From the IMG/VR virus record IMGVR_UViG_2713896771_000019: a stretch of DNA of 4,952 nt; one strand, 5' to 3'. Made by a program: the position numbers and the translations under genes. Positions within the stretch are counted from its first letter, which is position 1; each line of letters starts with the position of its first letter. This DNA comes from a virus. Lineage: Duplodnaviria; Heunggongvirae; Uroviricota; Caudoviricetes. The notes beneath the pieces were generated by a model. It worked only from the letters and a program-made list of their open reading frames with translations, was not told the DNA's origin and did not search any database. This document shows positions 2,974-4,952 of the stretch, piece by piece.

Positions 2974-3162
2974 TTAGTGAACTGCCTCGCAGCTGTCTTT
3001 CCATGCCAGAACTTCGGATAAAGACCAGCCAACGGAACGACCGCCGAGCTTACGCCGTGATGGGAATTGTCCGGCTTTTTCCAGGCGGTACCGACATGAG
3101 CGGCTCAGGCCTGTAAGTTGCTGACATTCTTTTTCACGTATAAAGCGATCTGTGCTTAACAC
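2974..3162 (-). CDS. alpA: AlpA/Vis-family phage transcriptional regulator (62 aa, MerR-like HTH)
   Basis: Track ORF; the start codon is GTG at 3162-3160, preceded by a strong SD AAGGGGG (4 nt spacer). The motif LTGLSRSCRYRLEKAGQFPSRRKLGGRSVGWSLSEVLAW matches the AlpA-family signature (HTH ... FP ... LG.RSVGW...E...W). It lies downstream of, and in the same orientation as, the integrase, as in P4-like elements. Confidence 0.8.
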   Translation of the reverse strand: MLSTDRFIREKECQQLTGLSRSCRYRLEKAGQFPSRRKLGGRSVGWSLSEVLAWKDSCEAVH

Positions 3163-3192: not shown

Positions 3193-3240
3193 ATTGGGTG
3201 GGTTATTGGGTTGGGTTGTGTCGGATTGTGTCAGGGTGTT
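3193..3240. repeat. G/T-rich degenerate repeats (TTGGGT x3, TTGTGTC x2) in 10-bp register, upstream of the alpA start
   Basis: TTGGGT at 3194, 3206 and 3211; (G/A)TTGTGTC at 3215-3222 and 3225-3232. The region is 30-80 bp upstream of the alpA GTG on the minus strand, so it falls in the alpA promoter region. Confidence 0.45.
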
Positions 3241-3457: not shown

Positions 3458-3517
3458 TTGTTCCAGATTGTTCGCCGTTGTTCGTCGTTGTGTCTCGTTG
3501 TTTCACGTTGTGTCCGT
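3458..3517. repeat. Six tandem 10-bp repeats TTGT(T/G)(T/C)CNCG directly downstream of the int stop
   Basis: Units: ttgttccaga, ttgttcgccg, ttgttcgtcg, ttgtgtctcg, ttgtttcacg, ttgtgtccgt, contiguous with perfect 10-bp register. The array ends ~20 bp from the int TAA (3539-3541). Confidence 0.7.
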
Positions 3518-3538: not shown

Positions 3539-4789
3539 TTATATTTCTCTGGCTATTGGCAGTGTGGTTACGTTTTCGTGAGCACCTGCCAGTATCTCTA
3601 ATCGCTCTGTCCACATATCCAGCGCATTACGTTTCGCATCGATATAACGGGAGTGGTTATAGACTCGTTGCATCCCTGGCATCTGGTGAGCGGTGAGTTG
3701 TTCGACAATATGTGGATCCACGCCTAAATCGTTCAGCATCGTGGTAAACGTGCGCCGTATATCGTGTAGTGACCAGTGCGGATGGTTTAATTTTTTGTGC
3801 GTGAATCTGCCGTATTGCGACACGCTGGCTTCCTGTTTCAGTTCCCCGAGTAATAGCCCTGTGTGCCTGTTCTGCTCCACCAGCTGTGTGACGAACGGCA
3901 AAATGCTTTCCGGTATTGGCCTGAATATGGCGACCTTCGTTTTGCTGTGCTCTTTCGGTACTGTCCAGAGCATTTCCTTAAAATCCCACTCCCTGATCTC
4001 CGACAGCCTCAGTTCTCCGGTCCGGCAGCCGAACACAATCAGGAGGCGGATTAGTGCGCTGTAGTAGGGCGGGAATATTTTTTTATCCAGCGCCTGTAAT
4101 AATTCGCTCAGTTCTTTGTTGCTCAGCACGCGTTCGCTTATGCCCGGCTTTTTGCCAACGTCCACCACGTTGAGATCATCCAGAACGTTACTGACTGCGT
4201 AGCGACGTTTACGGCAGAACTTAAGCGCCTGTTTACACGCCTGCATCATGTGGCCAGATGTTACGGGTGATTTTTTGCGTATCCGGTCAAAACAGGCCAG
4301 CCAGTGACGTAACTCGCATTTATCCAGTGGCATATTGCCAATATGCTGTATGACGTGATTATTAAGGCGGCTTTTCAGGCATACGTAATCGACACGGTTT
4401 TCCTTTACGTGCATTTCCAGCCAGTAGCTGATCGCATCGCCCACCGTTACCGGCTTTAGTGCTTCCTGTATGGAGTAATTAAGCTCATGGCGTGGATTTT
4501 TTCCTTCTGCCAGCCATGCGCGACACTGTGCTGCTTTTTCCCTGGCTGCTTTCAGGCTCAGATCAGGATAATTTCCCAGTTTCAGGCGTTCCGGTGATAC
4601 CTGGCGTCCTGTTCCTGCCCTGTAGGTGAAATACCAGGTTAACAGGCCGCTGGTGGAGTGTCTGATACTCAGATTTCCACCGTCATTAAGAAAGGTGGTT
4701 TTTTGGGCTGGTGTGCCGTTGATTTTTCTTAGCTGCGTGTCGCTCAGTTTGTTAAGTGCCCTGCTCATAATTTTGAATCCGGTCATCAC
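3539..4789 (-). CDS. int: P4-family tyrosine site-specific integrase (416 aa)
   Basis: Track ORF. The N-terminal arm-binding-like region (LSDTQLRK...FLNDGGNLSIR...YFTYRAGTGRQVSPERLKLGNYPDLSLKAAREKA) resembles P4-type integrases. The C-terminal catalytic region carries the tyrosine-recombinase signatures GCRTGELRLSE, HDIRRTF and a Tyr in RVYNHSRY. The first codon at 4789 is GTG; alternative ATG starts lie at 4786 and 4768, none with a clear SD. Confidence 0.9.
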   Translation of the reverse strand: MMTGFKIMSRALNKLSDTQLRKINGTPAQKTTFLNDGGNLSIRHSTSGLLTWYFTYRAGTGRQVSPERLKLGNYPDLSLKAAREKAAQCRAWLAEGKNPRHELNYSIQEALKPVTVGDAISYWLEMHVKENRVDYVCLKSRLNNHVIQHIGNMPLDKCELRHWLACFDRIRKKSPVTSGHMMQACKQALKFCRKRRYAVSNVLDDLNVVDVGKKPGISERVLSNKELSELLQALDKKIFPPYYSALIRLLIVFGCRTGELRLSEIREWDFKEMLWTVPKEHSKTKVAIFRPIPESILPFVTQLVEQNRHTGLLLGELKQEASVSQYGRFTHKKLNHPHWSLHDIRRTFTTMLNDLGVDPHIVEQLTAHQMPGMQRVYNHSRYIDAKRNALDMWTERLEILAGAHENVTTLPIAREI

Positions 4790-4790
4790 A

Positions 4791-4814
4791 ATTAACTACA
4801 CCATTAACTACACC
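4791..4814. repeat. Perfect 12-bp tandem duplication ATTAACTACACC x2, immediately upstream of the int start
   Basis: Copies at 4791-4802 and 4803-4814 are identical and abut the int start codon region (4786-4789). Confidence 0.7.
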
Positions 4815-4830
4815 GATCATTGCACAAGGG

Positions 4831-4860
4831 GGTACAACGTGGAACAAGCTGGAACAAGAA
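4831..4860. repeat. Three tandem 10-bp repeats GG(T/A)ACAA(C/G)NT upstream of int, the inverse of the array downstream of int
   Basis: Units ggtacaacgt, ggaacaagct, ggaacaagaa. Read on the minus strand they give CTTGTTCCAG / CTTGTTCCAC / GTTGTACC, sharing the 9-mer TTGTTCCAG (plus 3458-3466; minus 4857-4849) and CACGTTGT (plus 3504-3511; minus 4841-4834) with the 3458-3517 array. Confidence 0.65.
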
Positions 4861-4952
4861 AAATTGCAATAGACTTAAAAATCAAAAACATAATGAACAA
4901 CGTGGCACATTATGAAACAGCAAAAAACACTAATTTATAAAAATCCGCTATT

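Follow-up and report, generated by a model that had tools for sequence, protein, structure and literature searches.

A tandem 12-bp repeat upstream of int in a capsid-forming PICI-like island as the probable int-proximal half of the arm-type sites of a P4-family attP

What is a perfect 12-bp repeat doing between an integrase gene and the end of the island that carries it? The window analysed in this work, a stretch of 4,952 bp, had been examined before from its letters alone, and this sequence-only reading had reported a 12-bp tandem duplication abutting the int start codon, for which it proposed an operator, a translational control element or a recent slippage product. The duplication itself is borne out exactly by the sequence and by TRF, with two units ATTAACTACACC at 4791-4802 and 4803-4814 (in int sense, GGTGTAGTTAAT twice; hereafter the A pair). 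Each unit contains the core ACTACACC, which reads GGTGTAGT in int sense and is invariant among relatives selected by similarity. TRF run on the window returns 2.3 copies of period 12 with a score of 49 over 4787-4814, and no further copy of ATTAACTACACC with up to two mismatches is present in the 4,952 bp. By our own arithmetic, a random sequence of this length would contain about 4952/4^12 = 3e-4 perfect 12+12 tandems, so chance is no explanation for the A pair. A match with three mismatches inside int (4472-4483), lying at about the distance of the intragenic repeat of P4, was taken as fortuitous since four such matches were found for 3.4 expected and its orientation is wrong.

The window corresponds to the int end of a 15.4-kb island of E. 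coli TUM9757 (locus L001), which interrupts yifB next to ilvL, with yifB fragments annotated on either side. The island combines a regulation and replication module (int, alpA, an icd-like gene, a DUF4222 gene, RepA helicase, SSB and PerC) with a packaging module (major capsid, prohead protease, portal, head-tail connector, HNH, small and large terminase). Such a gene content is that of capsid-forming PICIs (bioRxiv 10.1101/2022.09.08.507074) and, as known here from its genes, the island is a cf-PICI-like element of ~15 kb. The crossover identity block, or core, is the 10-mer ATCCGCTATT, found at both ends of the L001 island and located in the window at 4943-4952, i.e. at the island/yifB junction and the window end. 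The alpA gene (2974-3162, minus strand), downstream of int, encodes an excisionase-type regulator of 62 aa (Phage_AlpA, PF05930, 3e-18). Short direct repeats (GACACAA twice and a CCCAAC-type sequence; 3193-3232) are found 30-70 nt upstream of its start at 3162 and possibly belong to the alpA promoter/operator.

The position of the A pair relative to int depends on which start codon is considered. Based on Pfam, the PGAP start and relatives, int is assigned to 3539-4768 on the minus strand and encodes a tyrosine integrase of the P4 family with an N-terminal arm-binding domain (PF13356, Arm-DNA-bind_3, 4.1e-18, residues 15-102 of the long ORF) and a catalytic domain (PF00589, Phage_integrase, 7.4e-17); no sequence relative of Int was found in the PDB. 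The longest possible ORF would start at GTG 4789, then ATG 4786, only 1-4 nt from the repeat end at 4791. RefSeq/PGAP places the start at ATG 4768 (MSRALNK...) in the 99.8% identical TUM9757 locus. Moreover, in the clpS/cspD relatives the upstream ATG and int are in different frames, and the tqsA relatives lack the upstream codons and display a GGGGG Shine-Dalgarno sequence before the start aligned to 4768. As judged from these alignments, the conserved start of int is ATG 4768, rather than GTG 4789 or ATG 4786, and the A pair ends 22 nt upstream of it. The earlier view of a repeat abutting the start is thus valid for the longest ORF only. Similarly, the statement that no room is left for a Shine-Dalgarno sequence does not hold for ATG 4768, since 22 nt are sufficient for one, while the remark that none is clearly visible stands for the window, where the only candidate is a poor GGA at -14 to -12.

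Two side observations concern the same interval. In the segment that separates the repeat from the int start, the block CCGGTCATCA (window 4780-4789, CGGTCATCAC) is conserved between yifB-type and clpS/cspD-type islands, although the ATG within it is out of frame in the latter. It may act at the level of DNA instead of being translated. Besides, a hypothetical protein of ~60 aa (WP_001364171.1) is annotated over the att arm, antisense to int, in some RefSeq genomes (20017-20199 in L005, equivalent to window ~4756-4938 on the plus strand, where the window has an ORF at 4626-4940). Given the repeat architecture, this is probably a spurious call.

The most telling feature of the A pair is that it is present in the other arm as well. 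An identical and co-oriented 24-mer occurs at both ends of the L001 island (distal, 170-193; int-proximal, 15292-15315) and no further copy exists in the 30-kb locus beyond these two arms. In that orientation, the distal pair does not precede any gene. Once attP is reconstructed, the distance from the start of the proximal pair to the core is 149-152 bp, and the distal pair begins 66-74 bp past the core. The resulting pair-to-pair spacing is 232-233 bp in all of the 11 islands bounded at both ends, which together use six different cores (232 bp in L016), and 233 bp in vB_KppS-Ant. The copies thus sit in both arms around the core with a position and an orientation that are fixed irrespective of the core sequence. 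The attB cores are ATCCGCTATT (yifB), TCACGATATT (smrA/abgR), AAATATGTCC (phoQ/roxA), TGCTGTTAT (tqsA), ATAACTATCAT (clpS/cspD) and ATACGGGTATTTCT (thiM leader). Arm repeats are near-identical in five of the six core groups (islands L001-L010 and L016 considered), the thiM-site group having a different 12-mer at unchanged spacing. Members of this clade (L012, 9700-9800; L016, ~20000-20100) integrate in or beside an annotated riboswitch upstream of thiM, presumably a TPP riboswitch by its position, and their identity block includes GAGAAATACCCGTAT.

Conservation was evaluated at two evolutionary distances. Ten related E. coli islands, fetched by BLAST similarity and not by motif, occupy five attB sites (yifB, smrA/abgR, phoQ/roxA, tqsA and clpS/cspD), and in all ten each arm has two copies of N4-ACTACACC. 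The 8-mer shows no change among them and the 4-nt spacer varies (ATTA, ATTG, AGTG, AATA or AATG). More distant lineages were collected through Int protein homology (49-68% identity) and the contigs encoding these proteins, and a scan of genome contigs with an Int alignment gave a single locus. Every distant lineage displays two to three tandem 12-bp units at the same place, built on a different unit. At the thiM riboswitch site, L012 and L016 carry ACTGACCACACA (three proximal units in L012, two in L016, and two distal units in L016). The Salmonella islands exhibit two copies of ACTGACCTCACA (L013), or two (L014) or three (L015) copies of CACTGACCGCAC. The packaged fis-site PICI vB_KppS-Ant has two copies of TGTATAAACAYW in both arms, its proximal pair being 16 nt from the int ATG, and three further lineages show two copies of GTGTAGT-type units. 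Where the far arm could be read, i.e. in three lineages including P4, the unit is changed there too. The two arms therefore co-vary, as both switch to ACTGACCACACA in L016 and both carry TGTATAAACA in vB_KppS-Ant, the independent lineages being few.

Could this duplication be a neutral and recent accident of replication slippage? In its favor, slippage does alter the copy number in this family, since L014 and L015 differ by one unit (two versus three, at ~9915-9950) with an identical Int protein (P0041), and L012 has three proximal units versus two in L016. Against it, the pair keeps its 12-bp register exactly throughout the lineages examined, P4 among them, and in both arms where these were read. 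In addition, the window's arm was altered to carry one or three copies and queried against 5,426 complete E. coli genomes, and the best matches were all two-copy loci with a 12-nt gap, none of which reached 99% identity. Single-copy relatives, the observation that the sequence-only reading had named as evidence against a function, were not encountered, the copy number being two or three throughout and never one. All of the 26 PICI-context arms in IMG/VR also have exactly two copies, in a set that was selected for at least two; as column conservation pooled with these motif-selected matches is circular, it was left out of the evidence. A slippage product devoid of function consequently has next to no probability, and the idea of a recent duplication finds no support in these data. 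Nor does the proposal of a translational control element fare better, since its premise was the wrong start codon. A role at the RNA level in the 5' leader of int, for instance in binding a regulatory protein as suggested for P4 Vis, would be compatible with an A pair located in the leader if transcription starts upstream, and Vis is reported to bind the P4 int mRNA (as cited in PMC2951348). However, the leader folds no better than its shuffled versions (MFE of -13.9 versus a shuffle mean of -15.9, z = +0.75), an Rfam search of the window gave no match, and the identical distal pair is not part of any leader, which makes control of translation highly improbable.

The organization described above closely resembles an annotated precedent. 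In the part of the P4 record NC_001609 that covers attP, 12-bp "attP arm sequence repeat" features are annotated as tandem pairs (after Pierson & Kahn 1987). One pair (3942-3965) lies 15 nt before the int ATG, the core occupies 4078-4097, and a co-oriented pair follows at 4151-4174. Both systems share back-to-back 12-bp pairs of which one is upstream of the int start (15 nt in P4, 22 nt here), a second co-oriented pair beyond the core, an integrase with an Arm-DNA-bind_3 domain and an RDF of the AlpA/Vis type. They differ in the unit itself, which is unrelated (TTGGGGGCAT in P4 versus GGTGTAGTTAAT here), in the pair-to-pair distance (209 versus 232-233 bp), and in two additional P4 copies, of which one is inverted over the start codon and the other lies within int, and for which no convincing equivalent exists here; furthermore, the two Int proteins are only 23% identical. 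Whereas the attB of P4 is a tRNA gene, the related islands studied here use protein-coding or intergenic attB sites. A "doubled motif" that occurs twice was also described in the attP of HE-PICIs, where it was called unique to these elements and its binder was left open between Int, whose arm domains were proposed as one possibility, and AlpA (PMC10111431). The likeness extends to a tandem 8-mer core with a 4-nt spacer (tgTGTATTGCantgTGTATTGCa), to PICIs that carry int and alpA, and to two copies with a common orientation, each at a set distance from the attP center. In contrast, the spacing is ~213 bp in HE-PICIs versus 233 bp here, the same layout is found here with a different unit in cf-PICI and other PICI lineages, and the covariation reported here favors Int over AlpA. 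With this anatomy, this conservation, a fixed geometry, covarying arms and a match to the P4 annotation, the A pair is probably the int-proximal half of four arm-type Int sites in a P4-family attP, which would also serve to repress int.

Which protein recognizes the A pair is a separate matter. Since the A motif and a second motif discussed below (the GAACAA or B motif) are each found in both arms, anatomy alone gives no answer to which protein binds which, and the informative observations are limited to the exclusion of AlpA and a single-residue correlation in Int. Proteins of the excisionase type typically recognize direct repeats arranged in tandem within att arms. AlpA, as an excisionase/RDF and activator that would oligomerize on such repeats, is thus an obvious candidate, all the more that alpA adjoins int and that AlpA was kept as a possible binder of the analogous HE-PICI motif (PMC10111431). 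However, natural swaps speak against this assignment. Between islands L007-L010 and L012/L016, AlpA is 98% identical (local alignment) and the 12-mers are different; conversely, AlpA is only 59% identical between L001-L006 and L007-L010, which have the 8-mer ACTACACC in common. As the unit does not track AlpA in either comparison, a sequence-specific AlpA site is unlikely. A site for an RDF would follow its cognate protein, which the A pair does not do; it is the GAACAA family, also present in both arms and near alpA, that follows the AlpA type. A third possibility is that another factor, either the host proteins IHF or Fis or another island protein, binds the A pair to shape the intasome. The fixed spacing is in line with this view, insofar as it reveals architectural sites and not their binder. 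Nevertheless, the unit differs among islands within one host species, which is difficult to reconcile with a host factor, and by eye it is unlike the IHF consensus WATCAANNNNTTR. Regarding island proteins, int and alpA are the only genes of this module common to P4, vB_KppS-Ant and the islands studied here. An architectural factor of this kind seems very improbable to us.

Int is then most likely the protein that binds the A pair, whose units would be putative arm-type sites for its N-terminal domain. At the position of Int Thr48, which sequence prediction places in β-strand 3 of the arm domain, T, S or A is found in all seven GTAGT lineages and K or R in all three G-N-GGT lineages. Residue 48 is therefore a possible specificity determinant, a lead rather than a proof. 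This correlation may reflect one evolutionary event, as all K/R lineages are at the thiM site and are perhaps one clade. In addition, vB_KppS-Ant has a threonine at that position with a very different unit, indicating that one residue is not the whole code, and the identity of the entire N-terminal domain of Int fails to separate the motif classes cleanly.

If Int occupies the A pair, what are the neighboring repeats for? At 4840-4858, 25 nt core-ward of the A pair, lies the B pair (TGGAACAAG twice with a 10-bp period), a candidate for AlpA sites (RDF/activator). The distal arm repeats the same order, with the A pair followed by the B-family sequence GGAACAACTTGGAACAAA, and the gap between the A pair and the B family is 16-25 nt across the two arms. 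The B variant follows the AlpA type, with TGGAACAA accompanying the 62-aa AlpA and NCGAACAA the AlpA of 69-74 aa. Weaker B-like units (ACAACGTGGCAC and ATGAAACAGC; repeat search, family D1) are found between the B pair and the core (4897-4926), and the clpS/cspD islands have CGAACAC twice at the equivalent position. Just 3' of the int stop codon, TRF and the repeat search detected about six TTGTTC/TTGTGT units with a 10-bp period (3458-3513), inverted with respect to 4840-4858 and conserved in L001-L006. The two inverted arrays bracket int (35 nt, 80% complementary, 1330 nt apart; families D2 and I1) and are possible AlpA sites through which int and alpA would be looped or regulated. Finally, both arms contain ATAATCAAA-type sequences (window 4879-4892; 99-112 in L001), the distal one being near the core. 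Conserved between island groups, these sequences bear a weak likeness to IHF sites (WATCAA...).

The remaining issue is whether the int-proximal pair acts on int expression. The int start is 175 bp away from the core and the gene is directed outward from it, a geometry by which its promoter would have to lie inside the att arm. A scan of 4600-4952 for sigma-70 consensus promoters and terminators found nothing. By eye, a weak candidate promoter can be proposed on the minus strand, with a -35 TTGTTC (4847-4842, in the B site; 3/6 matches), a 17-nt spacer and a -10 TGCAAT (4824-4819; 4/6 matches), whose predicted transcription start falls at the first A unit. An equivalent element (TTGTTC-17-TACGAT) exists in the clpS/cspD islands. 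Several -10 candidates within the repeat itself were discarded for want of a -35 at a usable spacing.

Autorepression of this kind has precedents. Among studied systems, the two nearest are P4 Pint and KplE1 PintS, where Int and IntS, respectively, are described as binding within the att arm close to the transcription start and thereby repressing their own genes (PMC2951348, in which the regulation of Pint in P4 is credited to Piazzolla et al. 2006), and IntI of PAI-I(536) also represses its own promoter (PMC7286903). The attL/PintS region of KplE1 (CPS-53) has int transcribed away from the core from a promoter inside the att arm, with the IntS arm-type sites P'1-P'2 and the TorI sites overlapping the intS promoter (PMC2951348). 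There, as is also proposed for the present island, the arm-type sites are close to the -10/+1 region, the RDF sites are further upstream, and the outcome is negative autoregulation. The two systems differ by their RDF (TorI versus AlpA) and by the fact that promoter and sites were mapped experimentally in KplE1 and are inferred here. By analogy, the A pair is probably also an operator for int autorepression, a step that rests on these precedents because the promoter candidate is weak and the consensus scan empty. The initial suggestion of an operator for int therefore keeps part of its value, since a protein-binding site just upstream of int is likely, although the primary role of the pair appears to be that of an arm-type att site, which the sequence-only reading had left aside. 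We put this role first since an identical pair is located ~15 kb away in the other arm.

How could such sites work together? In lambda attP (P1, P2 and P'1-P'3), the N-terminal domain of Int contacts sites on either arm and links them with the core. The principle of arm sites bridged to the core would be shared by the present islands, with differences in the family of the N-terminal domain, in site number and spacing, and in the expression of int, which in lambda does not originate within the arm. On the excised circle, the two co-oriented pairs would flank the crossover core at a distance of 232-233 bp from each other. Each 12-bp unit would bind one PF13356 N-terminal domain of an Int tetramer whose C-terminal domains hold on to the core, resulting in an intasome for integration. 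The excision intasome would comprise Int together with AlpA bound at the neighboring GAACAA repeats. In the integrated island, the proximal pair would be located at or just downstream of the likely int promoter, 22 nt upstream of the start codon, and its occupancy by Int would repress int transcription as in P4 and KplE1.

To conclude, a conspicuous repeat is accounted for as part of the integration machinery, as an ordinary functional element of a mechanism already described for P4, and the start of int is corrected to ATG 4768. Besides, the attP with doubled repeats at fixed spacing, known from P4 since 1987 and from HE-PICIs since 2023, extends to capsid-forming and other enterobacterial PICIs, its geometry of ~233 bp is constant across six cores, and the comparison of natural swaps points to the arm domain of the integrase rather than to AlpA. 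Going further, the doubled 12-bp motif at ~233 bp might be a general scaffold of PICI/cf-PICI integrases, in which a few residues of β-strand 3 confer specificity and AlpA loops or switches int through the GAACAA arrays. We find this extension rather doubtful. If true, T/S/A at Int residue 48 would go with GTAGT and K/R with G-N-GGT, and the loop or switch formed by AlpA would act on int expression upon induction. These islands would then possess a modular and re-targetable integrase, with constant arms and a changing core specificity. In any case, islands with the same arms and six cores offer a useful natural series for how these integrases change their target site.
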